Shown here: positions 5,042-31,747 of the stretch, piece after piece
How positions within the stretch are numbered: position 1 is the first letter of the stretch
Layout: each line of letters begins with the position of its first letter
Source: Candidatus Parcubacteria bacterium
Lineage (GTDB): Bacteria > Patescibacteriota > Microgenomatia > UBA12405
NCBI GenBank assembly: GCA_023443725.1
Contig: JAEZTF010000010.1
Coordinates: 1-32,000, forward strand
Direction: 5' to 3'
DNA: 32,000 bases
Translations under genes and position numbers: made by a program
Notes under the pieces: generated by a model
The model's database searches: none
What the model was told of the DNA's origin: nothing
Seen by the model: only the letters and a program-made list of their open reading frames with translations

Positions 5042-5254
5042 ATGTTGTCTAAAGAGAGACTTATAGAAAAATTTAGTAAAAAACTCAAGGAAGAAATGGG
5101 TAATATGAGCCAAGAATCTTTGGCGACTAAGTCTGGTTTGAATATCAGTTATATTGGTAGGCTTGAGCGAGGAGATGCTTGTCCAACAATTTATGCTGTC
5201 TACAAAATTGCTTTGGCTTTGAAAGTTAAACCTAGTGATTTGATGGAGTTATAA
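5042..5254 (+). CDS. XRE-family helix-turn-helix transcriptional regulator
   Basis: 70 aa. 'MSQESLATKSGLNISYIGRLERGD' is a classic HTH_3 motif. Confidence 0.8.
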   Translation: MLSKERLIEKFSKKLKEEMGNMSQESLATKSGLNISYIGRLERGDACPTIYAVYKIALALKVKPSDLMEL

Positions 5255-6493
5255 ATCTCCGCTTGGCAATTCTAGTGATTCGATTTTAGGTAACGCTTGA
5301 CCAGTTAAATCCTCAAGATCCCCATACATTCCGATAGTATTTTCAATTACTCTGTTAATTTGAGATTCTCTCTTTGCCCAAATTTTGGTGTAAGAGTCTT
5401 TTTCTTTTTGTAAATCGGTTCTCAATCCTCGGAACGCCTCGACAATTGCCTCAACTCTTTGATTAAAACCAGTGCCAGTTAAATAATTGAACAGAACTTC
5501 CATTTTTTCGTTTTTACCAACATTGGCTAATTTAAGAGAAGTTAATTGAAGAAGATTTGTTCTCAATGCTAATGCTAAACCTAAAAATGAGGCAAAATCT
5601 GTGATCCAAACTCCATCCTTTTGACCGAAATTCTTCATATCTTTCGGTAAAACAGTGGTAACTATAACTGCAATTTCTGCCTTTGCATTTCGTTGGTCAT
5701 CTTTTAATTTTGGAATCCAGTTGTCAGTCCAAGCTTTTGTGTGTTTTGACTCCCATACAATGGTTCCACAATGATGTCCGAAATTATCGAATACTTTTTG
5801 AGTGATATCCGCTCCATTCTCCCCTTTTCCAACTGGGATGATTTCATCTCTAGTAAATTCTGTTCTTAGTAACCCTTCTAATTCCAATTCTTGGACTTCT
5901 CCTTGAGTTTGTTGTGATCCTTGTTGAAGTTTTCTTTTTAGTTCATCATTCACCTTCATGGCATCAGTAAGTTGTTTTGATAATTCTGCTAATTTATATT
6001 GTTGCTCTTCAGATGCTTTTTTAGCTGCATCTTCAGTAATTTTCTTTCTTTCTTCATCAAGCTGTCTTTGTTTTTCTAATTCAAAGTTTTTCTTTTGATC
6101 CTCAAGCTCCAATTTTTCTTTTCTTAAATCAAGTTCAGCCTTTCTGGCCTCTTCAAGTTTTTTATCCTTTTCATCCAATTTTTCTGAAAGCATTTTGATT
6201 TCATCAGCCGATTCTTTTTTGGCTTCTTCCTTGATAATTTCTTTTAGTTTTGTCTTTTCAATTTCTAAAGCTTTTGAAACACCTTGGTTAACTAGCAGCT
6301 GAACATTGTTTCGAGCATCATTAATCCGTTTTTCTTGTTCTTCCAGTGCTTTTTTCTTTTGATCAATCTCATCTTCTTTGATCTTTTGATCTGCCTCAAA
6401 TTTCTTTCTTAATTCGTCACCAATTTGATGGGCTAAAACCTCATCAACTGATATTTCTGTACTACATTTTGGACAAATTATTTTTTGCGTCAT
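5249..6493 (-). CDS. DUF2130-like protein: N-terminal CxxC, long coiled coil, C-terminal PD-(D/E)xK-like nuclease core (RmuC-like architecture)
   Basis: 414 aa. 'IICPKCSTEISVDE' at the N-terminus. Residues about 25-205 are K/E/L-rich heptad-like. 'GADIT' (D229) and 'IVWESK' (E248-x-K250) are in nuclease-motif order. Its ATG overlaps the upstream stop (ATGA, 6490-6493). Confidence 0.7.
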   Translation of the reverse strand: MTQKIICPKCSTEISVDEVLAHQIGDELRKKFEADQKIKEDEIDQKKKALEEQEKRINDARNNVQLLVNQGVSKALEIEKTKLKEIIKEEAKKESADEIKMLSEKLDEKDKKLEEARKAELDLRKEKLELEDQKKNFELEKQRQLDEERKKITEDAAKKASEEQQYKLAELSKQLTDAMKVNDELKRKLQQGSQQTQGEVQELELEGLLRTEFTRDEIIPVGKGENGADITQKVFDNFGHHCGTIVWESKHTKAWTDNWIPKLKDDQRNAKAEIAVIVTTVLPKDMKNFGQKDGVWITDFASFLGLALALRTNLLQLTSLKLANVGKNEKMEVLFNYLTGTGFNQRVEAIVEAFRGLRTDLQKEKDSYTKIWAKRESQINRVIENTIGMYGDLEDLTGQALPKIESLELPSGDL

Positions 6494-11584: not shown

Positions 11585-13959
11585 AGGTTGAGAATTCGAC
11601 TATCTTTAACTTCCAAAACCATATTAATTAAATTATCTCTTCCAAAGATATTAACCCATTCATCTGGGGTAAAAGTATTGAAAGGACTAGTATTCAAAAA
11701 TAAGATATTTGGTGATTTTTTGATTTCGTTTCTTAATTCTTTATTTTGAATTAATTCATCGATAAGTAATTTGACCATCATGACTTTTTGTTGTGATCCG
11801 CCAGTAGTAGCCTCGCCATATTTTTCGACGATTCCATCTTTCCATTCTTTTAATTGTTGATCTCGATTTGGTAATTCTTTTTTACCAATGGCTGATAAAA
11901 AGAAATCTCTGATAGTGGCGACGACTTGGTGAGATTCGATTAAAGTTTCTTCATTAAAATAAAGTTCTGGTTTGTTGAGCAATTCAGTATTAATGATTTC
12001 TAATAATTCGTCTTGTCTGTTTTCGTCTTCGGCAATTTGTTTGATATCTGGTCGACTCTCGGCAAATTTAATGACTGTTTTTGTCCAATCGCTTTGATAC
12101 ATTTCTCGATCAACTCTGTCGCCATTTGGGCCATAAATAAGCTCATCTCTTCCATTAACAAAATCAAGACGATTAATGATTGGTTTATCTCCATAATCAA
12201 TAATGACTCCAGGACCTTCTCCTATTGGTTGTTCGATGACTCCTGTTTCTCCTGGGGATGGTCTTTCAATTGGTTTGGCTGATTCTTCAGTGACTTTTAG
12301 TGGTGCTGTCCAATCATATGTTTCTTCAAAATACTGACAAACACCGCAGAAATCGAAAATGACAAATTCTTTTTTATCAATTTCTTTACAAAGACGAGTA
12401 CCCCGACCTTTAATTTGTTGGTAAAGAGTTGGTTCAAAAACTGGTCGACAAAGAACAATATTTAGAATCTCTGGAGCATCGAATCCAGTGGTTAACATAT
12501 CAACAGAAACGGCAATTCGAGGTAATTGAATATCAAGATTTCTAAAGTCTTTGGCCAACTCATGAGCACCTTTCACTTGACTGGTAATGGTTTGTGCAAA
12601 ACGGCCATTAAATTCTGGTCTGAGATTATTCAATATTTTTTCGAGAGCTAAAGCATGTCTTTGATTGACGGCAAAAATTATAGTTTTACCAATTTCATTT
12701 GTTGGAGTTTTTAAGGCATATTCTAAAAACTCTTTCATCATTAATTCGTTTCTTTTGGGAATTGAGACTTTCTTTTCGATATCAGTTATTTTGTAATTTT
12801 CATTTTCAAAATCACCTTCACCAGCTAACCCTTGATCGCTTAAGGCTTGTTGAGTAATATCAGAAGTCATTTTGTGAAGTTTGGCAGGGACTAGATATCC
12901 ATCTTTAACTCCGTCTTGAATGTTATATTGATAAGTGGCTTTGCCGTCTTCACATCCGAAATATCGATAAGTACTTCTTTGAATTCTTAACTCAACAGCT
13001 CTTGGATCATCAAGACCCAATTTATTAATATCAATGTTTTTTAGGAAGTCTTTTGGAGTGGCGGTTAAACCAATTCTGGTAGCTCCAACAAAATAATCCA
13101 TTATTCCCCTAGCTTCGGCTGAATAAATACTTCGGTGAGCTTCGTCATGGATAATTAAATCAAAATATCCTGGAGTAAAAACATCTCTTCCGTGAGCGAT
13201 TAATGATTGGATAGTAGCGACGACGATATTGGCTCCAGTTAAATTCTTTTTTGATTCTCCCCAGTAAGTGGCAATAGCTGATAAGTTTCCAAGAAGTTTT
13301 TCAAATGATCCTTTTGTTTGACGAGCTAATTCAATTCGATCGACTACAAATAAAACAGTTTGAGCTTGATTTGTTTTGATAAATTTGGAAATGATAAGAG
13401 CAGATAAAACAGTTTTTCCTGTACCTGTGGCCATCTCCAATAAAAATCCTCTTTTGCCTTGATCGTATTCATTAGCAATGGCATTGAAAGCATCAATTTG
13501 ATAAGGTCGAAGTTTAATATCGGAATTAATATCTGAAAAATAATCGGAGCTTATAGGTTTTTGATTAAGAGGTTCACTAATTTTGGCTGATCTGGTTTGT
13601 CTTTTTCTAACTAAATCGTCTTGAGAAAAGAAAGCTGGAACTGGGGTGGCATCACCACCAGAATTAAAATCCCAAAAATAAATGATATGATCATTGGCTA
13701 AAAAAATATAATCGATATTTCCTTTGTACTGTAAATCGGCATAATCAAAAGATTGTTTCTTGGCTGAATAAGGATCAATATCTGGGGCTTTGGCTTCGAT
13801 TAGAGCTATTGGTTTTCCATGTTTGTCCTTAAGAACGTAGTCGGCCCTACCTGCTACACCATGATCTTCAAAAACAACTTGATTAGTATCAAAAATGTCC
13901 CAACCTACATCTTTAAGATGTTGATCGATAACTGCTCTTGAATAAGCTTCTTTTGGCAT
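11581..13959 (-). CDS. hsdR: Type I restriction enzyme R subunit (PD-(D/E)xK nuclease + SF2 DEAH translocase)
   Basis: 792 aa. N-terminal 'GRADYVL...IALIEAKA' (D40, E55-x-K57). Walker A 'ATGTGKT' (177-183). 'DEAH' (272-275). Motif VI 'QQIKGRGTR'. Its stop overlaps the hsdM-S start (ATGA, 11581-11584). Confidence 0.85.
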   Translation of the reverse strand: MPKEAYSRAVIDQHLKDVGWDIFDTNQVVFEDHGVAGRADYVLKDKHGKPIALIEAKAPDIDPYSAKKQSFDYADLQYKGNIDYIFLANDHIIYFWDFNSGGDATPVPAFFSQDDLVRKRQTRSAKISEPLNQKPISSDYFSDINSDIKLRPYQIDAFNAIANEYDQGKRGFLLEMATGTGKTVLSALIISKFIKTNQAQTVLFVVDRIELARQTKGSFEKLLGNLSAIATYWGESKKNLTGANIVVATIQSLIAHGRDVFTPGYFDLIIHDEAHRSIYSAEARGIMDYFVGATRIGLTATPKDFLKNIDINKLGLDDPRAVELRIQRSTYRYFGCEDGKATYQYNIQDGVKDGYLVPAKLHKMTSDITQQALSDQGLAGEGDFENENYKITDIEKKVSIPKRNELMMKEFLEYALKTPTNEIGKTIIFAVNQRHALALEKILNNLRPEFNGRFAQTITSQVKGAHELAKDFRNLDIQLPRIAVSVDMLTTGFDAPEILNIVLCRPVFEPTLYQQIKGRGTRLCKEIDKKEFVIFDFCGVCQYFEETYDWTAPLKVTEESAKPIERPSPGETGVIEQPIGEGPGVIIDYGDKPIINRLDFVNGRDELIYGPNGDRVDREMYQSDWTKTVIKFAESRPDIKQIAEDENRQDELLEIINTELLNKPELYFNEETLIESHQVVATIRDFFLSAIGKKELPNRDQQLKEWKDGIVEKYGEATTGGSQQKVMMVKLLIDELIQNKELRNEIKKSPNILFLNTSPFNTFTPDEWVNIFGRDNLINMVLEVKDSRILNL

Positions 13960-21568: not shown

Positions 21569-21629
21569 ATAACTATATTATCATTCAAAGAATGGCCAAG
21601 AGAATAAACACCAATAGAAATAAAAAATG

Positions 21630-21702
21630 TGGGTCCTGCGGGACTCGAACCCGCGACCAATTGCTTAAAAGGCAACTGCTCTACCGACTGAGCTAAAGAC
21701 CC
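21630..21702 (-). tRNA. tRNA-Lys (anticodon UUU)
   Basis: The reverse complement folds as a cloverleaf: acceptor GGGTCTT/AGGACCC, D GCTC/GAGC, anticodon stem GTTGC/GCAAT with loop CTTTTAA, T GCGGG-TTCGAGT-CCCGC. 73 nt, no encoded CCA. Confidence 0.9.
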
Positions 21703-21720
21703 AGATTGTAAAATTTCTAA

Positions 21721-22032
21721 TTAAATCTTTCTAGCTTTTGAATCGCGAAGATAGTAAAGCTTAGCTCTTCTAATTTTGGTTTTAGGAGATCGTAATTTTT
21801 TTATACTATCAATCCAAGGGGAATTGATTGGAAAAATTCTTTCAACTTTAACATCACCAGAAGCTGCTTTTTGAACGATGAAATTTTTATTATCTTCAAG
21901 ACCTTGAATAGCTAAAATAATGCCATCGAAAGCTTGAATTCTTTCTTTATCTTTTTCTTTAATTTTATAGTTGACCTTAACAGTATCTCCGACTGAGAAG
22001 ACTTGGTCTTGATATTTAAATTGGATTGCCAT
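21721..22032 (-). CDS. rplS: 50S ribosomal protein L19
   Basis: 103 aa. 'FSVGDTVKVNYKIKE..KERIQAFDGIILA' and 'RRAKLYYLR'. Confidence 0.95.
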   Translation of the reverse strand: MAIQFKYQDQVFSVGDTVKVNYKIKEKDKERIQAFDGIILAIQGLEDNKNFIVQKAASGDVKVERIFPINSPWIDSIKKLRSPKTKIRRAKLYYLRDSKARKI

Positions 22033-22082
22033 ATTTTTTGATTTGAAATTATATCAAAATTAAACTCTGGTAGTTTATCAAG

Positions 22083-25000
22083 CTAAGGTTTTTTTAGCAA
22101 GAGTTTGTCTATTTGATCTTTTAATTCTTGGTTATAGTTTACACCGTAATTGAGAGGAATATTTTTACCATTTGGTAGGATAATAAGTCCTCTATGCCCA
22201 TTTGGATTATCTTTAAGGAGTTTATTTAACTGCATTAATTGACCTTGGCTGGTTTTATCAGGAATTTTAATCACAAAATCATATTTACTGGTGCTTTGAG
22301 GAATTTTGTCTGTTATAGTATCAACCAAAATAGATATTTCTCCTTCTCGGAGATTTATTTTCCCCTCGATATAAAAAGGTTTATTTTCAGCTAAGATTGA
22401 CTCAACGTCATTAAAAATTTTAGGGAAAATAACAGATTCTATTTCTCCAGTACTATCGGAAAGAGTGGCAAAAGCCATTTTTGAGTTATTTTTTTTGGTT
22501 CGGATAACTCTAAATTTGGTAATAACAGCGGCTAATTTGACATTACTGTTTGGTGTTTGACGAGAAACCTCTTCAATATTGGGTAGTCCTAAATCCTCAA
22601 AAGATTGAAGTATTTTGACTAATGGATTTTCTGTAACGAAAACGCCTAAAAGTTCTTTTTCTAAATGGAGTCGTTGATTTTCGTCCATTGGTTCGGTTTT
22701 AATAAAATCATCTGGTGGAGCTACAATTTTTGTATCATTATCTTCAGTTGGTTTATCAAAAAGACTGAATTGTCCATTGTTTTTTTTGGTATTTAGTTTT
22801 TCACAATCAGTTCTAATTTTATCAATTGAAGCTAAAATAGAATTTCTTTCTCCAAATTGATCCATAGCCCCAACTTTAATAAGACTTTCTAAGACTCTTT
22901 TATTAATTTTTTGGGTGTCAACTCGAAGACAAAAATCAGTAAAGCTAACAAATGGTCCATTTTCTTTACGTTCATTAATGATGTTTTCAATAGCAGCAGC
23001 ACCGACATTTTTGATAGCGCTAAGACCAAAGCGAATAGCATAACCTTCTAATGATTTTGAATTTTCTTCTATTTCAAATCCACTAAATGATTGATTGATG
23101 TCAGGTGGAGCTACAATTATGCCCATTTTACGACAACCTTCAACACCATCGGTTACTTTTTCGCTATCTCCAGATTCGGCAGTTAATAAGGCACACATAT
23201 ATTCAACTGGATAATTGGCTTTCATATAAGCTGTTCGATAAGCCAACATTCCATATGAAGCTGCATGAGCTTTGTTGAAACCATAACTAGTAAATGGTTC
23301 GATTAATTTAAAAACATTTTCGGCTTGTTCTTTGGTGTATCCATTATTAATACAACCATCGATAAATTTTATTTTTTGAGCAGCCATTTCTTCTGGAATT
23401 TTTTTACCAATAGCTTTTCTAAATTTATCAACTTCAGTCCAAGTGTAACCAGCAAGTTCGATAGCAGTATATAAACAGTCATCTTGATAAACTAAAAGAC
23501 CATAAGAACTTTTTAAAAATTTTTCCATTTTTGGATCAAAAAATTCAATTTTTGAAGGGTCACTTTTGCGAGCAATATATTCTGGAATGATAGCCATTGG
23601 ACCAGGTCGATACAAAGCCACCATAGCCATTAAATCTTCAACACGATTTGGCTTTAGTTCTTTAAGCCATTTGGTCATACCATCGCCTGATAATTGAAAA
23701 ACTCCCATAGTGTCCCCTTTTGAAAGCATGTCAAAAGTTTTTTTATCATCGAGAGGAATTTTTCGAAGATTAATATCAATATTTTTAATACGACGAACAT
23801 TTAAAACCGACTCTCCTAAAAATGACAAATTTCTAATTCCTAAAATATCGAATTTAATTAAACCAACATCTTCGGCGGCATGCATTTCATATTGAGTAAT
23901 TGTTTTATCACCACCAGTTTCTAATTGAGTAGGTGAAAATTCGTTTATAGTAGTTGGAGAAATAACGATAGCACAGGCATGAACACTAATATGGCGGGCA
24001 CAGCTTTCAATTTGTTTGGCTGTATCAATAATTCTTTTAGAGTCTGGATCAGAAGCATATAAAGCACTGAGTTCGGGGACAGTACTTAAAGCTTTATCAA
24101 TAGACATAGGAAACCCTTGAGATCCCATAGGAATAAGTTTGCTTATTTTGTCTCCAATTGCATATTCATAGCCTAAAACTCTAGCAGTATCACGAACAGC
24201 ACCTTTAGCCATCATTCTTCCAAAAGTACATATTTGAGCCACAGCGTCTTTGCCGTATTGGTCAATAATGTGATAAAGCATATCTTGTCTTTTGGTATCA
24301 GAAATATCTAAATCGATATCAGGAGGAGATGGACGATCTTTGTTTAAAAATCTTTCAAAAGGTAGTTGATAAATTAATGGATCAACAGAGGTAATACCTA
24401 AAACAAAAGCAACTAAACAACCTGCTGCAGAACCTCTCGTATTAGTCGGCGTGTCATTCTTTTCTGTCCATTGGATAAAATCTCGCATGATTAAAAAATA
24501 GGCCGCGTAACCTTTTGAACAAATGACATCAAGTTCATATTCCAATCGGTCTTTTATTTCTGAACTAATTTCCCCATAGTGTAATTTTGATTCCTCGTAA
24601 ACTAAATCTTTTAAAGTTTCCTCGGCTGTTTTTCCTTCAGGAAGTTTGAATTTAGGAAAATACCAATTACCTAATTCAATTTCTAAGTCACATTTATCAG
24701 CAATTTTTTGAGTATTTTCTATGGCATCTGGTAAATCAGCAAAGGCATCAATCATTTCTTGTGGAGATTTTATATAAAAATCATCACCAGCCTCCATCAT
24801 ACTTAATCTTTTGGTGTCATTAATAGTTGATTGAGTATTAATCATCAATAAAACGTCTTGTGCAAAAGCATCTTCTTTTTTAAGATAATGAGCGTCGTTG
24901 GTAGCTACTAAAGGAATTCCCAATTCACGGCTAATTTTGACTAACCCTTTGTTGGCAATTTCTTGAACATCAAGTTTTGGATGACGCATAACTTCCAAAT

Positions 25001-25505
25001 AGTAGTCTTCCCCAAATAAATCTTGAAATTCTTTGGCTCTAGATTTGGCTTTTTCATATTCACCGTCAATAACTAATTGGGCAATCTCTCCCTCGACACA
25101 AGCACTGTTACAAATTAAACCTTCGTGATATTTAACTAAAGTTTCCCAATCAATACGTGGTTTATAATAATAACCTTCAATATTAGCAATACTAACTAAA
25201 GTCATTAAGTTTTTATACCCTTGAGTATTTTTGGCAAGCAAGATTAAATGATTACTACGACGATTGTTGGGAGATTTGTCTAAACGGTTTGAAGTGGTAT
25301 ATATTTCACAACCAATAATTGGTTTTATTTCTGCTTTTTTACAAGCTTTGTAAAATTCAATTGCTCCATACATATTGCCATGATCAGTGATGGCAATAGA
25401 ATTCATCCCCATTTCTTTAACAGTATTAACTAAATTTTTTATTTTAGTTAATCCGTCTAATAAAGAATATTCTGTGTGAACATGAAGATGAACAAAATTA
25501 GACAT
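22083..25505 (-). CDS. dnaE: DNA polymerase III alpha subunit
   Basis: 1140 aa. N-terminal PHP 'FVHLHVHTEYSLLDG', palm/fingers 'PDIDLDI', 'FDILGIRNL', 'FNKAHAASY'. C-terminal OB region. Confidence 0.95.
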   Translation of the reverse strand: MSNFVHLHVHTEYSLLDGLTKIKNLVNTVKEMGMNSIAITDHGNMYGAIEFYKACKKAEIKPIIGCEIYTTSNRLDKSPNNRRSNHLILLAKNTQGYKNLMTLVSIANIEGYYYKPRIDWETLVKYHEGLICNSACVEGEIAQLVIDGEYEKAKSRAKEFQDLFGEDYYLEVMRHPKLDVQEIANKGLVKISRELGIPLVATNDAHYLKKEDAFAQDVLLMINTQSTINDTKRLSMMEAGDDFYIKSPQEMIDAFADLPDAIENTQKIADKCDLEIELGNWYFPKFKLPEGKTAEETLKDLVYEESKLHYGEISSEIKDRLEYELDVICSKGYAAYFLIMRDFIQWTEKNDTPTNTRGSAAGCLVAFVLGITSVDPLIYQLPFERFLNKDRPSPPDIDLDISDTKRQDMLYHIIDQYGKDAVAQICTFGRMMAKGAVRDTARVLGYEYAIGDKISKLIPMGSQGFPMSIDKALSTVPELSALYASDPDSKRIIDTAKQIESCARHISVHACAIVISPTTINEFSPTQLETGGDKTITQYEMHAAEDVGLIKFDILGIRNLSFLGESVLNVRRIKNIDINLRKIPLDDKKTFDMLSKGDTMGVFQLSGDGMTKWLKELKPNRVEDLMAMVALYRPGPMAIIPEYIARKSDPSKIEFFDPKMEKFLKSSYGLLVYQDDCLYTAIELAGYTWTEVDKFRKAIGKKIPEEMAAQKIKFIDGCINNGYTKEQAENVFKLIEPFTSYGFNKAHAASYGMLAYRTAYMKANYPVEYMCALLTAESGDSEKVTDGVEGCRKMGIIVAPPDINQSFSGFEIEENSKSLEGYAIRFGLSAIKNVGAAAIENIINERKENGPFVSFTDFCLRVDTQKINKRVLESLIKVGAMDQFGERNSILASIDKIRTDCEKLNTKKNNGQFSLFDKPTEDNDTKIVAPPDDFIKTEPMDENQRLHLEKELLGVFVTENPLVKILQSFEDLGLPNIEEVSRQTPNSNVKLAAVITKFRVIRTKKNNSKMAFATLSDSTGEIESVIFPKIFNDVESILAENKPFYIEGKINLREGEISILVDTITDKIPQSTSKYDFVIKIPDKTSQGQLMQLNKLLKDNPNGHRGLIILPNGKNIPLNYGVNYNQELKDQIDKLLLKKP

Positions 25506-25521
25506 AGATAGATTTTATCAG

Positions 25522-26406
25522 TTAAAGCATCTGTTCTAGAGCTTTAATTCTGTCTTCAATTGGGGGGTGAGTTGAAAACATAGAGGCAATTTTATTGCCT
25601 TTAAATGGATTAGTAATATAAAGAGAAGCGGTAGCAGTGGAAGCGGTTTCTAATTTTTGATTATCTGAAGATAATTTTTTTAAAGCATTAATTAAACTTT
25701 GTGGTTGTCTGGTAAGTTTTACGGCTGAAGCATCAGCAAAATACTCACGACGACGAGAAATAGCTAATTGAATAAGTTGGGCGATTATAGGGGCAAAAAT
25801 AACTAAAATAAAACCAATTATAGCTAATACACCGCCATTATTGTCATCATTATCACGACTATCTCTAAAAAAACTACTACGGTAAGCCATATTAATCAAA
25901 ATTGATAAAGTGCCGATTAAGACACTAACAATAGTCATTAGACGAATATCATAATTTTTGATGTGAGAAAGTTCATGAGCTATGACTGCTTCTAACTCGC
26001 TGCGGTTTAGTTTTTCTAAAAGTCCAGTGGTAGCACAAACTACAGCGTGGTCTGGATCTCTGCCAGTAGCAAAAGCATTCATGGCTGGACTATCGATGAC
26101 AAAAATTTTTGGAGTTGGAGTTTGATTTACTAAACTTAAGTTTTCAGTAACGGTATAAAAATTAAAAAATTCTTTTCTAGTGGCTGGTCTGGCTTGATTT
26201 AATGTAAGAACAATTTTATCTCCCCAAAAATAGCTACTAAATGAAGAGACTAAAGAAAAAATAACAGCAATGATTAATAATGATGAGTCGAGATTTAGAG
26301 AATAAGAAATTAAATAAACAGTAATACTAATAAATAGAATAAACAAAGAGATAATAATCCCTGATCTGATTTTGTTATTATTTATTTGTTCGTAGACATT
26401 GACCAT
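25522..26406 (-). CDS. htpX: Zinc metalloprotease HtpX (M48)
   Basis: 294 aa. TM helices plus 'HELSHIKNYD' (HExxH) and 'EYFADASA'. Confidence 0.9.
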   Translation of the reverse strand: MVNVYEQINNNKIRSGIIISLFILFISITVYLISYSLNLDSSLLIIAVIFSLVSSFSSYFWGDKIVLTLNQARPATRKEFFNFYTVTENLSLVNQTPTPKIFVIDSPAMNAFATGRDPDHAVVCATTGLLEKLNRSELEAVIAHELSHIKNYDIRLMTIVSVLIGTLSILINMAYRSSFFRDSRDNDDNNGGVLAIIGFILVIFAPIIAQLIQLAISRRREYFADASAVKLTRQPQSLINALKKLSSDNQKLETASTATASLYITNPFKGNKIASMFSTHPPIEDRIKALEQML

Positions 26407-26407
26407 T

Positions 26408-26986
26408 TTATAGAGTTACTTTTGGATTTTTCATTTCCTCATCTGTAACTTTGATTTGATCGGAATTGGTGGCAGTTTCTAAACCTTTTTCAGGTTTAAA
26501 ACCGAGAACAGAAGCAATCCAAACACCAGGAATAGTAACAATTGAACTATTATAGTCAGCGCTTAGATCAATTAAAGTTCGTCTGGCATACATAAGTTTG
26601 TCGGCAGTATCACGAAGTTCATCCATAAGATTGTTGACCAATCCAGAAGTTTGAATTTCTGGATTACTTTCCATAATCACTTTAAGTGAACTAATACCCT
26701 TGTTAATTAATTCTTGAGCTTTATCGATTTTTTTATTGTCTTGACTAGTAATGGCTTCATCGACACTTTTTCGAGCATTGGTAAGATCTTCAAAAATTCC
26801 TTTCTCATGTTTCATATATCCTTTAACGGAATCAACTAGATTAGGGATAAGATTGGCTTGTCGTTTGAGTTGGTTACCAATTTCTTGAACAGATGCTCCA
26901 ATTTGAACTTGAAGACGTTTGAGTTTGTTGTAAAAAGATAAAACAAATAAAGCTAAAATAATTATGAGTGCAAGAATATATATCAT
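26408..26986 (-). CDS. lemA: LemA family protein
   Basis: 192 aa. N-terminal TM segment and 'YNKLKRLQVQI...QLKRQANLIPNLVDSVKGYMKHE'. Confidence 0.85.
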   Translation of the reverse strand: MIYILALIIILALFVLSFYNKLKRLQVQIGASVQEIGNQLKRQANLIPNLVDSVKGYMKHEKGIFEDLTNARKSVDEAITSQDNKKIDKAQELINKGISSLKVIMESNPEIQTSGLVNNLMDELRDTADKLMYARRTLIDLSADYNSSIVTIPGVWIASVLGFKPEKGLETATNSDQIKVTDEEMKNPKVTL

Positions 26987-26995
26987 TTAAATAAA

Positions 26996-28042
26996 TTAAA
27001 CTTTAACTTTTTCATTATAGCATTTTTGAGCGGTTTCAATTTCTTTTTCGCCGGTTCTAGATTGTGGTTCTATAAATCTAAGTTTAAGAAAATTATAAAG
27101 CTTTTCTTCAGTATCAAAAGTATTAGTTTTACCTGTTTTAAGGTCTTTTATGCCATATTCTGAAATAGATAAACCCAAAGACAAAGCATATTTTCGAAGT
27201 AAAATATTGTGTTGTCTTGAGCCAGTAAAATGTTGAACTAAAGAAGCAAAGTTTTTACTTGGCTGAACCATGATATCAACTCTAATATCGGGATAAATTT
27301 TTATAGAAGCTTTTTTGGTGCCGATATCTAAAGTTTGGATATTATCGGGATAAGATATAAAGTGCTCTAAAATTGGTCTAGAATCATTTGATTTGGCAGC
27401 TATATCAATATCACCAACAGTTGAACTTTGGCGACGAAGACTACCTAAAGCGACAAACTCAATTTGAGGAAATTTTTGTTTTAAAAAAACAATAATTTTA
27501 TCGGCTATCATTTTAGCTTCACTGTATTTCATCCGACGAGATTGACCTAAAAAAGCCAAACTGTTTTCTAAAATAACTTTTTCTGATTTTTCTCCAAAAT
27601 GAGGCCAATTTCTAATTTTCTGATTTTGAGCATATTCAATTAACTGGTTGACAGAAACTAAGGGATTTTTAGAAAATTTTAATTTTTTAGTCAGGGTGTA
27701 GGCAATTTTTGGTCCGATACTATTTATTTTAGTAAAAGTAAAAACGGCAGGATGAATGTTTTTAAAAGCTTTAATAATATCGGGATGTAATTTATTTTTT
27801 TCGAGTAAGTAAGATATTTTTTTAAAAATATTTGGGCCGATACCAGGGATATTATCAACTAAACTAGGATCTTTTTGGTAAAGTTTTTGGATAGACTTTG
27901 GATAACTAATGATAGTTTCTGCAGCGTCTTGATAAGATTTGATTCGAAAATAATCTTTACCTTTGATTTCGTAGGCGGTGGCAATATTTTGAAGAATTTC
28001 AGCTATATCAGAATTGGAATAGATTTTAGATCTATTAATCAC
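26996..28042 (-). CDS. Family X DNA polymerase, core only (no C-terminal PHP domain)
   Basis: 348 aa. 'IAEILQNIATAYEIKGKDYFRIKSYQDAAETI' (HhH N-terminus), 'IPGIGP', nucleotidyltransferase 'GSLRRQSSTVGDIDI'. Confidence 0.8.
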   Translation of the reverse strand: MINRSKIYSNSDIAEILQNIATAYEIKGKDYFRIKSYQDAAETIISYPKSIQKLYQKDPSLVDNIPGIGPNIFKKISYLLEKNKLHPDIIKAFKNIHPAVFTFTKINSIGPKIAYTLTKKLKFSKNPLVSVNQLIEYAQNQKIRNWPHFGEKSEKVILENSLAFLGQSRRMKYSEAKMIADKIIVFLKQKFPQIEFVALGSLRRQSSTVGDIDIAAKSNDSRPILEHFISYPDNIQTLDIGTKKASIKIYPDIRVDIMVQPSKNFASLVQHFTGSRQHNILLRKYALSLGLSISEYGIKDLKTGKTNTFDTEEKLYNFLKLRFIEPQSRTGEKEIETAQKCYNEKVKV

Positions 28043-28113
28043 ACTTATTATTATAAATCATTGTTTTGAATTAAAAGTTTTGATATAGTATCTATACTTT
28101 AAGACCGACTTAA

Positions 28114-28187
28114 GGGCTCGTGGTGCAGCGGTCTAGCACATCCGCCTGTCACGCGGAAGATCGTGGGTTCGAATCCCATCGGGCCCG
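28114..28187 (+). tRNA. tRNA-Asp (anticodon GUC)
   Basis: Cloverleaf: acceptor GGGCTCG/CGGGCCC, D GTGC/GCAC, anticodon stem TCCGC/GCGGA with loop CTGTCAC, T GTGGG-TTCGAAT-CCCAT, discriminator G. 74 nt, no encoded CCA. Confidence 0.95.
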
Positions 28188-28197
28188 CAAAGTAATT

Positions 28198-28218
28198 AAT
28201 CCCCTATTTTAGGGGATT
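28198..28218 (+). terminator. Hairpin terminator after tRNA-Asp (copy 0 of the cassette hairpin)
   Basis: AATCCCCT-ATTTT-AGGGGATT, 8-bp stem. It also lies just 3' of the convergent ORF 28239..28973. Confidence 0.6.
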
Positions 28219-28238
28219 AATTAATGATGGTAGTGAAA

Positions 28239-28973
28239 CTATTTTCCTAAAAATATATCTAATAAACTTCGTCTTGTTTTAGGTTTGGCTCCGTATTCTG
28301 TTTTTAAATATTCAAATCCTTTTGGAATATGTGGATCTGGTATATGTGGTGAACAATCTCGATCAGCTGTTTCTACTAATTTTGTTAAAAGACCTGGTTT
28401 AGAGAGAAGTATTGGTTCAATTTTTGAATAATCACGTCTCTTGGAACAATCTTCTAATAATATTTGATGTAACTTATCTTTATCTTCTTCATTTTCTGCT
28501 AAAGGTATTAATATTGATTTTTCTGCGTAATCTCTAGCAATAAAAATAGATAAACAATCCGTACTAATTATTAAATATGGTCTTGTGTCAAATGCTTTTT
28601 CGTCTGTTGAATCTGGGTTTCCCTTATCATCACAATAAGATTGTGGAGGTATATAACTTATAGTATGGGTATGTAATTTGTATTGGGGTTTTAAATGTGT
28701 ATTTTTTTTAAATTCTTCAAAATCTTTAGGGCTTTTCTCTATCTCTCCAATTTTCCAAACTTGATCTCTTATTTCTTGAAGTGTAGTTGATATTCCTAAT
28801 TTATCTAACAATTCAAATCCAGGTAAAATTTCACTTCTGTAACGTTCTTCTAATTTAATAATTACTTCTCTTTCTTTTGTTTGTTTAGATAATAATTGAG
28901 CATCTTTTTCATTTCTATCATTTTCGGCTTGTTGTTGTAAAAAATTAATTCTTTCGCTTTCCCAGTTTGTCAT
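28239..28973 (-). CDS. Cassette protein A, unknown function (paralog of 29150..29884)
   Basis: 244 aa. Shares MTNW start, an alignable N-terminal region of about 90 aa (..LL.., IP.F..LD, L.EI.DQV, PKDF) and an identical C-terminal RRSLLDIFLGK with cassette B. No known domain recognised. Confidence 0.6.
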   Translation of the reverse strand: MTNWESERINFLQQQAENDRNEKDAQLLSKQTKEREVIIKLEERYRSEILPGFELLDKLGISTTLQEIRDQVWKIGEIEKSPKDFEEFKKNTHLKPQYKLHTHTISYIPPQSYCDDKGNPDSTDEKAFDTRPYLIISTDCLSIFIARDYAEKSILIPLAENEEDKDKLHQILLEDCSKRRDYSKIEPILLSKPGLLTKLVETADRDCSPHIPDPHIPKGFEYLKTEYGAKPKTRRSLLDIFLGK

Positions 28974-28980
28974 TTTTTAT

Positions 28981-29102
28981 TTATCGTTATTTAACGGATA
29001 ATATCGAGTATATTACTTTTTTCTACTTTTTCAATATAGAAATGTTACTTTTGAGATCAAAATCTATCAAAAACGTTCCAACTTCGTCCCACACGGCCCG
29101 TA
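28981..29102. repeat. Cassette arm copy 1: promoter/5'UTR of cassette A plus degenerate tRNA-Asp 3' end (29083-29102)
   Basis: 118/120 identical to 29891-30010. TTCGTCCCACACGGCCCG matches the tRNA T-loop/acceptor 3' strand at 17 of 22 aligned positions. Confidence 0.85.
29007..29034 (-). promoter_or_regulatory. Sigma-70-like promoter of cassette A
   Basis: Minus strand TTGAAA (29034-29029), a 16-nt spacer, then TATACT (29012-29007), about 35 nt upstream of the ATG at 28973. The same sequence recurs at 29917-29944 and 30635-30662. Confidence 0.5.
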
Positions 29103-29110
29103 AATGAATT

Positions 29111-29129
29111 ATCCCCTATCTTAGGGGAT
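29111..29129. terminator. Cassette hairpin copy 1
   Basis: ATCCCCT-ATCTT-AGGGGAT followed by T7 on the plus strand. Lies 3' of ORF 29150..29884. Confidence 0.55.
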
Positions 29130-29149
29130 TTTTTTGTGTGTTGGTAAAA

Positions 29150-29884
29150 TTATTTTCCTAAGAATATATCTAATAAACTTCGTCTTTGTTTTTGTCGTTG
29201 TAGTTGATTGTATCTTAACAGTAAATCTTTGCGCGAATTGACATATTCTCTACGTCTGATTAATACTGAGCAATATTCTACCAAATGATTTTTAATTAAT
29301 TCATTTATTTCTTCTACTGTGTTTTTATTAAGTTCAATATGAATACCACTTATTTCTAAATAAGTCCCATCAGATACTACCTTAATTGTTTCGTACCCTT
29401 CCTTGACATATTCACTCTCAACACCATCTCCGTCTGTACTTGAGTAATAGATTAGTCTTTTTGGTCCGGCTAATACATATGTTGCATGTGGACAATTTTG
29501 ACCAATATCTCTTTTATCTTCTTCGGTTAAATCAAAATTATTGTTTGGTGGTAAATTATCGAATTTTGTTATAAAACGATGATAGGAACTATCCCATATA
29601 TCACGTAATGATAATTCTTTATGTTGATTAAAATCTTTTGGGGTTTTTATTATTTGACCTCCACCAAGAACTTGATCTTTTATTTCGCTTAGTCTTTCAG
29701 GGATATGAAAACTATCTAAAATATGAAAACTAGGAATCACTCTGTTTTCATAGTTTATTTTTAGTTCGTTGATAATTTGATTTTCTCTTCGTTCATTACC
29801 TCTTAATAATTGAGTCTGTCCGGTTTGAAATTCAGTTTGTTCTTGAGCTCTTAGTCTTGTTATTTCAGCATTCCAGTTTGTCAT
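29150..29884 (-). CDS. Cassette protein B, unknown function (paralog of 28239..28973)
   Basis: 244 aa, the same length as A. Same MTNW start and RRSLLDIFLGK end. The central and C-terminal body is not alignable by eye. Confidence 0.6.
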   Translation of the reverse strand: MTNWNAEITRLRAQEQTEFQTGQTQLLRGNERRENQIINELKINYENRVIPSFHILDSFHIPERLSEIKDQVLGGGQIIKTPKDFNQHKELSLRDIWDSSYHRFITKFDNLPPNNNFDLTEEDKRDIGQNCPHATYVLAGPKRLIYYSSTDGDGVESEYVKEGYETIKVVSDGTYLEISGIHIELNKNTVEEINELIKNHLVEYCSVLIRRREYVNSRKDLLLRYNQLQRQKQRRSLLDIFLGK

Positions 29885-29890
29885 TTTTTT

Positions 29891-30012
29891 TTATCGTTAT
29901 TTAATGGATGATATCGAGTATATTACTTTTTTCTACTTTTTCAATATAGAAATGTTACTTTTGAGATCAAAATCTATCAAAAACGTTCCAACTTCGTCCC
30001 ACACGGCCCGCA
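29891..30012. repeat. Cassette arm copy 2: promoter/5'UTR of cassette B plus degenerate tRNA-Asp 3' end (29993-30012)
   Basis: See copy 1. In addition, 30005-30041 is 37/37 identical to 28182-28218 (tRNA 3' end + spacer + hairpin). Confidence 0.85.
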
Positions 30013-30020
30013 AAGTAATT

Positions 30021-30041
30021 AATCCCCTATTTTAGGGGATT
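30021..30041. terminator. Cassette hairpin copy 2
   Basis: AATCCCCT-ATTTT-AGGGGATT followed by a T-run on the plus strand. Lies 3' of ORF 30055..30609. Confidence 0.55.
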
Positions 30042-30054
30042 TTTTAATGAAATC

Positions 30055-30609
30055 TTATGGATATTTAAGAAAATCAACTGATCCAGTTTTTTCTATTCTT
30101 TGATTATGTTTAAAAATCGCAATAACGGTAGCTAATTCGTTTAGAACTTCATTTCTTTGTGATATCATTTTTGCACGCATATCATAATGAGAACAGGTTT
30201 CTCCTTTGTTTTCCCACCAACAAGTATTGTCTTCTACGCTTCTATTGTAACAACCAACTTGGTAACCGACTTGAGTTTTTACAACTCCTATTGCTTCTTT
30301 TGTAATATTAAAGTAACCGCTATAATCACCACTACCTTCAATCCAATGTTTGCAGTCTGTGTACACTAAAAAATAACCAGGGAACGAAAATGATGCCCCA
30401 GTTTCTATATGAATTGGTTTATCTGAATTCCCTTTTATAGTTATAATTCCTTTATCAATTACTTCTTGAAAAGCTGATACTACACCAAGATCAGTAAGGT
30501 CTTTTTGTGCTTCTGTAATATTTCTTTGTGATTCATTTCCACAAACACCGTTAATATTTTGTTGGGCGGAATTAACTCGATCAAGAAAACTAGGTCTTTC
30601 TGTAGGCAT
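30055..30609 (-). CDS. Cassette protein C, unknown function (unrelated to A/B by eye)
   Basis: 184 aa, Cys/Trp/Gly-rich ('CWWENKGETCSHYD'). Driven by the same conserved arm as A and B. No family recognised. Confidence 0.55.
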   Translation of the reverse strand: MPTERPSFLDRVNSAQQNINGVCGNESQRNITEAQKDLTDLGVVSAFQEVIDKGIITIKGNSDKPIHIETGASFSFPGYFLVYTDCKHWIEGSGDYSGYFNITKEAIGVVKTQVGYQVGCYNRSVEDNTCWWENKGETCSHYDMRAKMISQRNEVLNELATVIAIFKHNQRIEKTGSVDFLKYP

Positions 30610-30614
30610 TTTGT

Positions 30615-30705
30615 TTATTTAACGGATAATATCGAGTATATTACTTTTTTCTACTTTTTCAATATAGAAATATTACTTTTGCGATCAAAATCTATCAAAA
30701 AACGT
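30615..30705. repeat. Cassette arm copy 3 (promoter/5'UTR of cassette C; no tRNA-like end)
   Basis: About 91 nt matching copies 1 and 2 with 2 substitutions and 1 single-base indel. Similarity stops exactly at ...ATCAAAAAACGT. Confidence 0.8.
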
Positions 30706-30749
30706 ACTATATTTATTTAATTATCTATTTCGTAGTTGTATAATTTGGA

Positions 30750-31172
30750 ATGGAGATAGAAATATTAAAAAAGTCGGATATAGAATCATATAAAGCGTTA
30801 ATCGATGAATGTTTTGATGGAAGTAATAGTATTTCTGAATATGAAAAATACGACACAGAAGCTAATTATAAAATTATAGTGGCGAAAAATGGAAATAAAG
30901 TTGTTGGAAGTGTTACTTTTTACAAATTAGATTTGTTTACTTTTTCTTTTCAACCAGCATTAGAAGTTTTTAATGTGGCAGTATTAAAAGAATATCGAGG
31001 TCAAAAAATTGCTAAAAAACTTTTTGAATATGTTATTGATTATGCCAAGAAAAATGGTTACAAATCGATAAATTTGACTTGTTTAGATACGGCTATATCG
31101 GCTCATAAACTTTATGAAAGTATTGGTTTTGTAAAAGCTAGTAGCATTAAATATAATTTTTATTTAAAATAG
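30750..31172 (+). CDS. GNAT family N-acetyltransferase
   Basis: 140 aa. 'VAVLKEYRGQKIAKKLFEYVIDYAKKNGY' is the acetyl-CoA binding motif A (R/Q-x-x-G-x-A/G type). Confidence 0.85.
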   Translation: MEIEILKKSDIESYKALIDECFDGSNSISEYEKYDTEANYKIIVAKNGNKVVGSVTFYKLDLFTFSFQPALEVFNVAVLKEYRGQKIAKKLFEYVIDYAKKNGYKSINLTCLDTAISAHKLYESIGFVKASSIKYNFYLK

Positions 31173-31203
31173 TTTTTATTTTAGTTTTTTATTCTAAAGA
31201 AAA

Positions 31204-31229
31204 GCCGTATAAATAGGTATTTATACGGC
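31204..31229. terminator. Bidirectional hairpin between convergent genes
   Basis: GCCGTATAAATA-GG-TATTTATACGGC, perfect 12-nt inverted repeat between the GNAT stop and the stop of 31250..31642. Confidence 0.6.
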
Positions 31230-31249
31230 GTGGGTGCCAAAAAAGAGTG

Positions 31250-31642
31250 TTAATTTTGTTCAGGTGAAACGAATGATGCTTTGGCTTCTTCGTAATAAAA
31301 AGATAGGTTTGGATCTGCACATTTGTCAATGTCTTTGGTAATCATTTCCAATCTGACATCGGACTTGGCGGTGGCGATGAACTGTTGGAGAATGAAAATT
31401 GCCAGATTATTGTTTTCTTCGGAGTCGATAGCTGGATGATCTATGAAATTGGTTTTAATAATTCCAAGATCGGTTTCGTCTGTTGTTTGACTGGTGATTT
31501 CTTTGACTTTGTCGTAGAAAGCCATAATCGTTTTGGGATTTTTTTTACAGACCCTTAGTTCTGGAATCAGTCCGACAATTTCTACTACAGTTTTGGCGGC
31601 TTCAATCTTACTTTTCAACATTTTAAACACACTCCTTTTCAA
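31250..31642 (-). CDS. Hypothetical protein
   Basis: 130 aa ORF with ordinary amino-acid composition. No motif recognised. Confidence 0.45.
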   Translation of the reverse strand: MKRSVFKMLKSKIEAAKTVVEIVGLIPELRVCKKNPKTIMAFYDKVKEITSQTTDETDLGIIKTNFIDHPAIDSEENNNLAIFILQQFIATAKSDVRLEMITKDIDKCADPNLSFYYEEAKASFVSPEQN

Positions 31643-31747
31643 TGTTCTTTCTTACTTTTTTGAAAAACGCTATCGTTCTTCGGGGTAATCGGATTATAAC
31701 ACTCAAAGTGATTTACTTAAAAAAAATGAATAAAGTATAATGTAGCC

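Follow-up and report, generated by a model that had tools for sequence, protein, structure and literature searches.

How did three single-gene units, all with nearly the same promoter region and two of them closed by an imitation of a tRNA end, come to stand in a row behind one tRNA gene? The locus in question, from an uncultured bacterium with a small genome, lies on contig JAEZTF010000010.1 of assembly GCA_023443725.1, of which we analysed a 32,000-nucleotide (nt) stretch (here called the window; all window coordinates refer to the full stretch). The best named relative of the neighbouring PolX-like gene comes from a Candidatus Shapirobacteria metagenome-assembled genome (MAG) of the Patescibacteria/Microgenomates group. 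We propose that miniature cassettes, each with a single gene and none with a recombinase, form a strain-variable array behind tRNA-Asp and are mobilised site-specifically by an enzyme acting in trans, and we put the probability of this reading at roughly one half. The observations that carry it are these: genes are replaced between strains with breakpoints at a short boundary module, the module recurs with unrelated cargo, and recombinase genes are absent. For comparison, 26 loci were fetched in total (L-numbers, L001-L025 etc., denote the compared loci or contigs). tRNA genes were called with ARAGORN and Rfam (RF00005), proteins were annotated with Pfam, PADLOC and PHROG, and structures were searched with Foldseek against PDB and BFVD.

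On the 3' side of the tRNA-Asp gene we found three units, each made of a hairpin, a minus-strand open reading frame (ORF) and a promoter arm. Units 1 and 2 close with a pseudo-tRNA 3' end, here called pt3'. The features of the array are as follows (aa, amino acids; AF2, AlphaFold 2; pLDDT, its confidence score):

28114 to 28188, plus strand: intact tRNA-Asp (GTC), the anchor (ARAGORN; Rfam RF00005, 67.3 bits).
28182 to 28227, no strand assigned: core GGCCCG, spacer CAAAGTAATTA and hairpin 1 AATCCCCTATTTTAGGGGATT, with an extended palindrome at 28193-28223; left boundary of cassette 1.
28239 to 28973, minus strand: ORF1, 244 aa, family A (HMMER family profile; AF2 pLDDT 86.5).
28974 to 29074, minus strand: arm 1, the ORF1 promoter region (-35 TTGAAA at 29034-29029, -10 TATACT at 29012-29007).
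29075 to 29100, no strand assigned: pt3'-1, pseudo-tRNA 3' end GTTCCAACTTCGTCCCACACGGCCCG; right boundary of cassette 1, attR-like.
29101 to 29136, no strand assigned: spacer TAAATGAATTA, hairpin 2 ATCCCCTATCTTAGGGGAT and a T-run; left boundary of cassette 2, terminator predicted on both strands.
29150 to 29884, minus strand: ORF2, 244 aa, family A, a paralog of ORF1 (BLASTP E=1e-15).
29885 to 29984, minus strand: arm 2, the ORF2 promoter region (-35 at 29944-29939, -10 at 29922-29917).
29985 to 30010, no strand assigned: pt3'-2, same sequence as pt3'-1; homology to sister strain L011 restarts exactly here.
30011 to 30050, no strand assigned: spacer, hairpin 3 and a T-run; matches the tRNA-Asp terminator of relatives L004 and L011.
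30055 to 30609, minus strand: ORF3, 184 aa, family B (98.6% nt identity to the sister strain).
30610 to 30705, minus strand: arm 3, the ORF3 promoter region, with no pt3' behind it (-35 at 30662-30657, -10 at 30640-30635).

A repeat search recovered this layout as two families of repeats. One, of 162 nt, starts at 28974, 29884 and 30602 (spacings of 910 and 718 nt); the other, of 54 nt, starts at 28174, 29086 and 29997 and spans the tRNA end and the hairpin. The direct repeats contain the 3' portion of the tRNA: an exact 37-nt stretch (GGCCCG plus 31 nt of flank), preceded at 29075-29100 and 29985-30010 by a degenerate copy of the T-loop-to-acceptor region. Cassette 1 lies directly behind the tRNA, as after insertion at a tRNA 3' end that leaves the gene intact, and the single-gene cassettes are compact, arrayed and each closed by a conserved site. 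An earlier reading made from the sequence alone (the sequence-only reading) had described a threefold pattern anchored on an intact tRNA-Asp, and the tRNA calls and the repeat families confirm it. The identity of 28182-28218 with 30005-30041, which it had also noted, holds over all 37 nt. Its "three ~910-bp cassettes" apply to two units only, the third being ~700 nt long, and two inserted cassettes plus one resident or oldest unit describe the array better than three cassettes do. It had also raised the doubt of an assembly artefact. We found 0 mismatches over 28000-31300 among the assemblies of three different samples (L001, L002 and L023), whose contig names (NODE_, k141_ and scaffold_, respectively) point to different assemblers; thus the array is real. 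ORF1 and ORF2 are both exactly 244 aa long, in units of 910-912 nt, despite 29-37% identity and many indels. Chance might explain the equal lengths, or the cassette may be constrained in its size.

To describe the boundary module, we aligned 16 copies of it. The order of elements is pt3' (GTTCCAA-N-TTCG-TCCCACAC), GGCCCG, a spacer of ~11 nt, the hairpin ATCCCCTATTTTAGGGGAT and a T-run. From the T-loop onward (GTTCGAA / TCCCAT / GGCCCG in the tRNA), pt3' differs from the tRNA by a 5-nt insertion and a few substitutions; pt3'-1 mimics the T-loop-to-acceptor stretch. The sequence-only reading had counted 17 positions in the arm ends that match the tRNA 3' end; this stands if the 5-nt T-loop insertion is allowed, and is otherwise 15 of 20 columns (p~0.04 against shuffles). 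pt3' lies in exact register with the identical 37-nt 3' stretch. All lineages aligned carry the same 5-nt insertion, and the opening GTTCCAA of pt3' hardly varies, also in modules whose arms have no more than ~77% identity. Judged by this pattern, pt3' is an old conserved sequence family and no fresh copy of the resident tRNA. The motif closes the right ends of cassettes in L007, L008, L011, L015, L018, L020 and L025.

The origin of the hairpin is apparent from more distant relatives. The tRNA-Asp gene is kept in L004, L005, L008, L011, L015, L020 and L025. In L004 and L005 (PolX ~71% identical to the window at the nt level), it is followed by the same hairpin, AATCCCCTATTTTAGGGGATTTTTTAATG, and then by different genes; the hairpin is therefore the native terminator of tRNA-Asp, and the stretch from tRNA-Asp to ndk is a variable region. 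Hairpin 3 (30021-30041 plus T-run) matches this ancestral terminator better than does hairpin 1 next to the tRNA. It is probably the displaced original terminator, which suggests that the latter was moved 1.8 kb downstream. Hairpin 1 is stable (-25.9 kcal/mol; z -3.7 for the RNA fold against shuffles). On the plus strand it is without the T-run that hairpins 2 and 3 have, and it was not called as a terminator there. The hairpin after the tRNA (28199-28227) has lost its T-run (GGGGATTAATTAATG), and so transcription of tRNA-Asp may read antisense into ORF1 in the window strain. Hairpin 2 and its spacer differ from hairpins 1 and 3, and both pt3' copies are identical; both exchanges thus fall between GGCCCG and the spacer. 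Since pt3' would give no functional tRNA end, the exchange must lie at or 3' of GGCCCG. We propose that the last bases of tRNA-Asp, GGCCCG(C), are the crossover core on the attB/attL side.

Next to this module the locus differs between strains. The sister strain L011, represented by a 104-kb contig, encodes a protein 98% identical to ORF3. By BLASTN, window 21627-28233 corresponds to L011 at 98.1% identity and window 29985-30698 to L011 8624-7912 at 98.0%. The slot between these homologous blocks measures 1751 nt in the window and 497 nt in L011. In the window it holds ORF1, an arm, pt3', a hairpin, ORF2 and an arm; in L011 it holds a single forward ORF of 162 aa, which is unrelated to ORF1/ORF2 and gave a weak match to TnsA-like PD-(D/E)xK proteins. 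The left breakpoint lies just past hairpin 1 (28233), and the right breakpoint is the first base of pt3'-2, GTTCCAACTT(C/T)GTCCCACACGGCCCG. The stop codon of the 162-aa gene in L011 abuts pt3', with no arm there; pt3' is therefore the right boundary of the slot and no part of the promoter arm. Both strains have ORF3, its hairpin, the pt3' before it and arm 3 in common, and ORF3 with arm 3 is probably the resident or oldest unit.

Two further contigs show variant junctions. Contig L021, from another sample and 99.5% identical, reads ORF1, arm 1 (with arm 1-specific bases), pt3', hairpin 3 and ORF3, without ORF2; for the sample of L021, no record of the exact ORF2 protein exists. Contig L022 (100% identical) carries pt3', hairpin 1, ORF1 and arm 1, a junction that is absent from the window and that would be expected of a circle excised between the tRNA end and pt3'-1, of a tandem copy or of an extra upstream cassette. 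We regard the L021 and L022 junctions as supportive, not conclusive. Presence/absence polymorphism with breakpoints at repeats is thus seen between the window and each of L011, L021 and L015. A comparison of cassette number and content among relatives had been suggested from the sequence; both indeed vary, between strains with ~98% identical flanks (L011) and also in L021 and L015.

The same layout (hairpin, cargo, pt3', hairpin) was present in L007, L008, L009, L011, L014/15, L018, L020 and L025, and it recurs in about ten metagenomic lineages. The loci read as follows:

L014/L015: tRNA, hairpin, family B gene, arm, pt3', hairpin, family A gene, diverged arm.
L025: tRNA, hairpin, family B gene, arm, pt3', hairpin, forward gene for a predicted membrane protein.
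L008: tRNA, hairpin, family A gene, arm, pt3', another hairpin, an exact copy of the last 16 nt of the tRNA, another terminator copy.
L020: tRNA, hairpin, family A gene, a different promoter, pt3', another hairpin.
L018: pt3' variant, family A gene, arm, pt3', hairpin, an unrelated 249-aa gene with its own promoter, pt3', hairpin, forward DUF2726 gene.
L007 and L009: single cassettes with the same ends.

L015 has the two families in the opposite order to the window. Cargo outside families A and B comprises DUF2726, NUDIX, GNAT and TnsA-like PD-(D/E)xK proteins, a weak PLD-like and a weak NIF-like match, and the predicted membrane protein. Many family members sit on contigs of 0.9-1.2 kb that end in the flanking repeats, because multi-copy flanks break short-read assemblies. 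A circular form of the L007 contig was considered and rejected; its ends overlap by only 11 nt, which is no evidence of a circle. At 2290-2420 of L008, the exact 16-nt copy of the tRNA-Asp 3' end (AATCCCATCAGACCCG) is followed ~80 nt on by the second terminator copy, with no gene between; these extra copies look like scars of older insertions or excisions. L003 stops just past its tRNA-Asp (positions 3-78) and L006 has a masked run of N (~9900-10000) at the expected tRNA-Asp site, breaks that are consistent with a locus that is hard to assemble or variable in those related MAGs too.

The promoter arm is the second conserved part of the array. It spans ~100 nt and consists of a promoter, a leader of ~30 nt and a conserved upstream block of ~45 nt. 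TTGAAA-N16-TATACT occurs on the minus strand of each of the three arms, with 10/12 matches each, and is predicted to be a good sigma-70-type promoter. Inside the window the arms are 92-97% identical to one another, and a 31-nt core occurs three times where none is expected by chance. Arms 1 and 2, with the ends that follow them, differ at 2 of 120 positions (28981-29100 against 29891-30010; 97% identity over 100-101 nt). Arm 3 has two substitutions and one extra A, and its similarity breaks off at ...AAACGT. The description of the arms given by the sequence-only reading was accurate on all these counts: 118 of 120 positions identical with a period of 910 nt, a third arm with two substitutions, one indel and no tRNA-like end, and the promoter as a sequence pattern.

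Compared with L015 and L016, the arm is ~90% identical at the nt level. The corresponding value against L015 is 87.7% for PolX and 66% at the position orthologous to ORF3. The arm is thus better conserved between species than is neighbouring coding DNA. Judged by these identities, it is under strong purifying selection while its genes evolve very fast, a disparity that indicates a dense regulatory function; given such selection, gene conversion is not required to explain the similarity of the arms. We considered the arm as an RNA element, but its fold was no better than that of shuffles (z-score -0.31) and Rfam gave nothing except a sub-threshold match to Phe_leader. Nor does it appear to be a relic of a tRNA, the distal part of the arm being not significantly similar to the tRNA anticodon arm.

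The genes behind these promoters belong to two families. ORF1 and ORF2 (29-37% identity) have in common their N-terminus and the C-terminal RRSLLDIFLGK. A word-index homology search returned only ORF1 itself with ORF1 as query, and three proteins with the family profile; the family surfaced only with HMMER. A full HMMER scan with an ORF1+ORF2 profile recovered the members of family A, ~22 cluster representatives. They have an N-terminal MTNW..., an ILPGFExLD...L.EIRDQVWK.GE block, a variable beta-rich centre, a helix with ..DC..RRDYSK and a tail with the consensus KRSFLDKLFG. Family A is an unannotated, fast-evolving family. ORF3 showed no significant similarity to ORF1 or ORF2 by BLASTP or by profile-profile comparison (hhalign). 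It was also considered as a remote member of family A, but hhalign aligned only an 8-11-residue SFLD(R/K) motif at a probability of 1-3%. Scans of ORF1-3 and all 22 family members with Pfam, PADLOC and PHROG gave only sub-threshold and inconsistent matches. The three genes had been described as being of unknown function; they indeed matched no annotated family, and the description needs the qualification that ORF1 and ORF2 are paralogs to which ORF3 is not detectably related.

Remote-homology searches and structure prediction, proposed earlier for the three proteins, were run and yielded confident models without a significant neighbour in sequence or structure. The AF2 model of ORF1 (pLDDT 86.5) has a helix at 4-58, a helix at 61-73, a beta region at 77-152 and a helix at 162-177; that of ORF3 (pLDDT 79.6) has a helix at 8-41, a helix at 43-53, a beta region at 67-124 and a helix at 152-175. 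The order of elements (long helix, short helix, beta region, helix) is the same in both, but the models could not be superposed. Sequence-profile searches of PDB with the cargo proteins gave no matches, and Foldseek against PDB and BFVD found nothing significant (best E 0.025-0.065 for family A). CapZ-alpha, a weak top Foldseek match of ORF3 (E 0.05, TM 0.34), was rejected as a relative since the resemblance is topological only.

The tail of family A offers a hint of function. The membrane-targeting sequence of Escherichia coli MinD, KGFLKRLFGG, is a short C-terminal amphipathic helix that binds membrane (PMC5471200). The consensus KRSFLDKLFG resembles it, and AF2 places a short terminal helix there at low confidence. 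The N-terminus of ORF3, MPTERPSFLDRV, contains the SFLD(R/K) motif of the family A tail, and the motif is N-terminal in the relatives of ORF3 as well. From these motifs, the proteins of families A and B may associate peripherally with the membrane. A role in conflict or interaction is also conceivable, because the families diverge rapidly and have nuclease-, NUDIX- and GNAT-type neighbours. At the DNA level, the motif (R/K)(P/R)SFLD(R/K)(V/L) is encoded at 30574-30609 for the N-terminus of family B and at 28242-28274 and 29153-29185 for the C-termini of family A; the two cargo families resemble each other nowhere else except in the arm. In P0028 (JGI, 182 aa, on a 1158-nt contig), the C-terminal ~80 residues are 98% identical to ORF3 and the N-terminal 100 residues are unrelated to it, so that this protein is either a recombinant or fused variant of ORF3 or an assembly chimera.

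Just past arm 3 lies a second strain-variable slot (30699-31652), of which one gene is listed here:

30750 to 31172, plus strand: GNAT acetyltransferase gene, absent in L011 and present in L016.

The window and L016 carry the GNAT gene together with a gene for 123-130 aa; in L011 a single gene of 103 aa takes their place, and in L015 one of 166 aa. All versions of the slot close at the same terminator, GCCGTATA...TATACGGC. The minus-strand cassette genes have no obvious Shine-Dalgarno sequence. The forward cassette genes (GNAT, DUF2726 and the 162-aa gene) have no Shine-Dalgarno sequence and carry a TATAAT/TATATT-like hexamer 5-7 nt before the ATG (window 30737-30752; L005 ~3430-3445; L018 ~325-345; L011 ~9115-9135), a spacing that suggests leaderless transcripts.

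How would such cassettes move? In the mechanism we envisage, an incoming cassette would carry an attP-like site consisting of pt3' (GTTCCAA...CCCACAC), the 6-7-nt core GGCCCG(C) and a copy of the tRNA spacer and terminator hairpin. This site would recombine, in or beside GGCCCG, with its counterpart at the tRNA-Asp 3' end, giving Campbell-type insertion. The tRNA would stay intact, the newest cassette would land right behind it, and older units would shift outward, each keeping a pt3'+hairpin module at its distal border. For the window, this order of events would mean that ORF2 entered first and ORF1 second, with ORF3 and its arm as the resident or oldest unit. Both read-through from the tRNA and transcription of the convergent cassette gene are predicted to stop at each hairpin, and the ~100-nt arm would act as a conserved sigma-70-type promoter and leader serving two cargo families. 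Since no cassette encodes a recombinase, the enzyme must act in trans; it might be a host Xer-type enzyme or be supplied by a helper element. We infer the identity of this enzyme, the circular intermediates and the site-specific rather than homologous nature of the exchange. The sequence-only reading had offered small integrase-less cassettes stacked at the tRNA as one of two models. The strain differences, the breakpoints at hairpin and pt3' and the unrelated cargo elsewhere support the stacking, and mobilisation in trans is the part that we continue to infer.

No recombinase domain was detected by Pfam, PADLOC or PHROG in ORF1-3 or in the cassette cargo of the other loci, so that the array has no integrase of its own. 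There was no tyrosine recombinase among the window ORFs scanned, and no IntI, attI, Pc or attC was found; judged by eye, the module does not have attC architecture. The only recombinase-like gene in the window encodes a Resolvase N-terminal domain and nothing else. It adjoins a DnaG-type primase (CHC2 zinc finger plus Toprim), and this block, 66-1437, may be the edge of a mobile element. A link of this serine recombinase (66-500) to the array was not adopted, the sole evidence being their shared location in the window. A phage or plasmid origin of the cassettes was likewise dismissed, as module and family are absent from viral contigs and phage records.

Several observations weigh against our proposal as a whole. 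The nearest recombinase-like ORF, the 144-aa Resolvase-domain protein at 66-500, is 28 kb away, and no element combining an integrase with the att-like module was found among the 26 fetched loci, viral contigs and phage records. Taken by itself, the resemblance of pt3' to the tRNA is modest or marginal (p~0.04). L021 and L022 are short, probably low-coverage contigs that cross repeats of 37-100 nt, and chimeric assembly is possible. The loss of ORF2 could equally have been mediated by RecA between the 97% identical arms. As to cargo function, the support consists of a short motif resemblance, and structure searches gave no significant match. The main rival is accordingly homology-driven exchange, which we consider unlikely, if by less than the explanations that follow. 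Here the pt3'+hairpin modules (~65 nt) and the arms (~100-185 nt) would serve as portable homology for RecA, through unequal crossing-over in the array or replacement after uptake of DNA from related strains. It would account for the lack of a recombinase in or beside the array, and identical tracts of 37 nt (tRNA 3' end/hairpin) and ~98 nt (arms 1 and 2) are at hand. The crossover in L021 falls somewhere in a ~100-nt identical tract, compatible with homologous deletion, and the whole slot differs between the window and L011 with both flanks ~98% identical, as in allelic replacement. However, pure homology gives no obvious reason why the module should mimic a tRNA 3' end, which is typical of att sites, and both inferred insertions were exchanged within the short interval from GGCCCG to the spacer. 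The arm-less cassettes with forward genes share only ~65 nt of homology per side, and the conservation of GTTCCAA across distant lineages suggests a protein-binding site.

The cassettes might instead be what is left of larger integrase-bearing islands or prophages at tRNA-Asp, eroded to immobile single genes between attR scars. There are well-documented islands next to tRNA genes in which partial tRNAs and degenerate elements lie scattered (10.1101/2020.12.28.424599; PMC5704250), and L008, with its extra true copy of the tRNA 3' end and second terminator without a gene between, resembles such old scars. We nevertheless hold decay to be improbable: the cassettes are compact and complete (terminator, intact ORF, promoter and immediate pt3', or in L011 a stop codon abutting pt3'), no fragment of an integrase turned up, about ten lineages repeat the single-gene unit, and strains at 98-99.5% identity hold different content, which implies that turnover was recent. 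The other model of the sequence-only reading, tandem duplication from a start point within the tRNA T-arm, with later coding divergence and flank homogenisation, fared worse still. In its favour, the tRNA-like ends are as many as the units, ORF1 and ORF2 are true paralogs of equal length, arms within the genome are 92-97% identical and the models of ORF1 and ORF3 share their order of elements. Yet coding regions at 29% identity lie between flanks at 97-100%, and ORF3 has no detectable homology to ORF1/ORF2 even profile against profile, so that the units are not homologous over their whole length. The same slot in L011 holds an unrelated gene, and L015 has the reverse family order. pt3' differs from the resident tRNA alike in many lineages, by the 5-nt insertion of an old family, and so was not copied from it. 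Duplication had been said to explain better why a fourth tRNA end is missing; ORF3 and arm 3 as the resident distal unit, shared with L011, explain this better, and three tRNA-type ends for three genes need no duplication. The L011 and L015 comparisons have largely refuted duplication already, and we give it a very slim chance. Slimmest of all, to the point of being negligible, is the chance of collapse or expansion during assembly. Repeated flanks of 100-185 nt do break assemblies and leave many family members on 0.9-1.2-kb contigs, but three samples and apparently different assemblers agree without a mismatch over 28000-31300, and the three units hold three different ORFs.

Mobilisation of cassettes at tRNA-Asp would have established precedents. 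Tandem accretion at tRNA and tmRNA genes, repeats of partial tRNAs and integrase-less CIMEs (cis-mobilizable elements) are known (10.1101/2020.12.28.424599; PMC5704250; PMC3146451), and in the ssrA islands of Dehalococcoides each direct repeat is immediately preceded, on its upstream side, by a conserved motif without a match in ssrA (PMC3146451). As in the Prochlorococcus tycheposon and the Dehalococcoides ssrA islands, units are inserted at a 3' end, stand in tandem split by partial copies of the gene end, vary between strains, and have newer elements pushing older ones outward; pt3' is placed like the non-matching motif of the ssrA islands. Those elements measure kb to tens of kb, and at least some have a tyrosine or serine recombinase and replication modules, whereas here we find 0.5-0.9 kb, one gene, no recombinase, the tRNA terminator hairpin in the repeat and a host from the Patescibacteria (candidate phyla radiation, CPR). 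CIMEs retain attL and attR, have lost genes for integration and transfer, occur in tandem at the target and use the recombinase of another element (PMC5704250; Pavlovic 2004 and Bellanger 2011, cited there). Cassettes 1 and 2 likewise lie each between modules of tRNA 3' end or pt3' plus hairpin and hold a single non-recombinase gene. CIMEs, however, are decayed derivatives of a known integrative and conjugative or mobilizable element (ICE/IME), with which they are mobilised; here no helper was found in the 26 loci, viral contigs and phage records, and the cassettes look compact and functional rather than like deletion remnants.

Other systems are related by architecture or logic. Integrons and clusters of attC sites lacking integron-integrases (CALINs) are tight arrays of single-gene cassettes, each with a hairpin-containing recombination site that is typical of the species; their cargo is diverse and mostly of unknown function, and some arrays have no integrase nearby. 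Integron cassettes are generally promoterless and expressed from Pc, and attC has an R''/L''/L'/R' architecture with a GTTRRRY core. The array described here shares with them packed single-gene cassettes, each closing in a conserved hairpin-containing module. Unlike integrons, it has no IntI, attI or Pc, its hairpin is a perfect GC-rich terminator, it is anchored on a tRNA gene, and each arm has its own TTGAAA-N16-TATACT match, with genes facing the tRNA. Xer-dependent modules (pdif modules of Acinetobacter, and integrative mobile elements exploiting Xer (IMEX) such as CTX-phi) are small, have no recombinase gene and are moved by host tyrosine recombinases at dif-like 28-bp XerC/XerD sites. 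Our units are likewise small and without a recombinase gene of their own, but there is no evident dif-like sequence and the target is a tRNA 3' end. In the vsp/vlp genes of Mycoplasma and the erp genes of Borrelia with their upstream homology box, near-identical 5' non-coding regions precede diverging coding regions; the products are surface lipoproteins with signal peptides, and switches act by inversion or phase variation. Rapidly diverging paralogs in one locus with a conserved promoter and leader are common to these families and ours, but signal peptides are absent from the proteins of families A and B, and we saw no invertible element. By analogy, the closest systems would be successively integrated tRNA/tmRNA islands and integrase-less CIMEs, with integrons/CALINs closest by architecture and Xer-dependent modules by logic. 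What sets the array apart from these systems are one-gene units of 0.5-0.9 kb, a tRNA terminator in the repeat, a promoter arm common to two cargo families, and the host clade. We found no literature description of such arrays in Patescibacteria.

Elsewhere in the window, a block resembling a defence island occupies 6490-13959 (with 5249-6493), all on the minus strand. It encodes an 880-aa protein with PHP and AAA_21/SMC-like (OLD-like) regions, an 825-aa fused HsdM+HsdS methylase/specificity protein (type I) and a 792-aa HsdR-type helicase/restriction subunit. A DUF2130 protein adjoins the block.

Little is known about mobile DNA and mechanisms of gene flux across the candidate phyla radiation, and the tiny genomes of these bacteria leave little space for accessory genes. 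If the variation at tRNA-Asp is plain homologous exchange or island decay, the locus is an ordinary though neatly resolved variable islet beside a tRNA. If our proposal is true, its cassettes would rank with the smallest on record for a tRNA hotspot, and the ~65-nt att-like site would be a handle for finding the recombinase. More tentatively, as a possibility we would not bet on, Patescibacteria of the Shapirobacteria lineage may own an integron-like capture platform, in which a recombinase encoded elsewhere reads the tRNA-Asp 3' end and terminator hairpin and moves self-promoted single-gene minicircles of ~0.5-0.9 kb. The array would then be a fast-turnover accessory array holding nuclease-like, NUDIX and GNAT genes and a putatively membrane-tethered, diversifying family behind a shared promoter arm. 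The two unannotated, fast-evolving families with their shared conserved promoter would be candidates for functions in conflict or host interaction in these episymbiotic bacteria.

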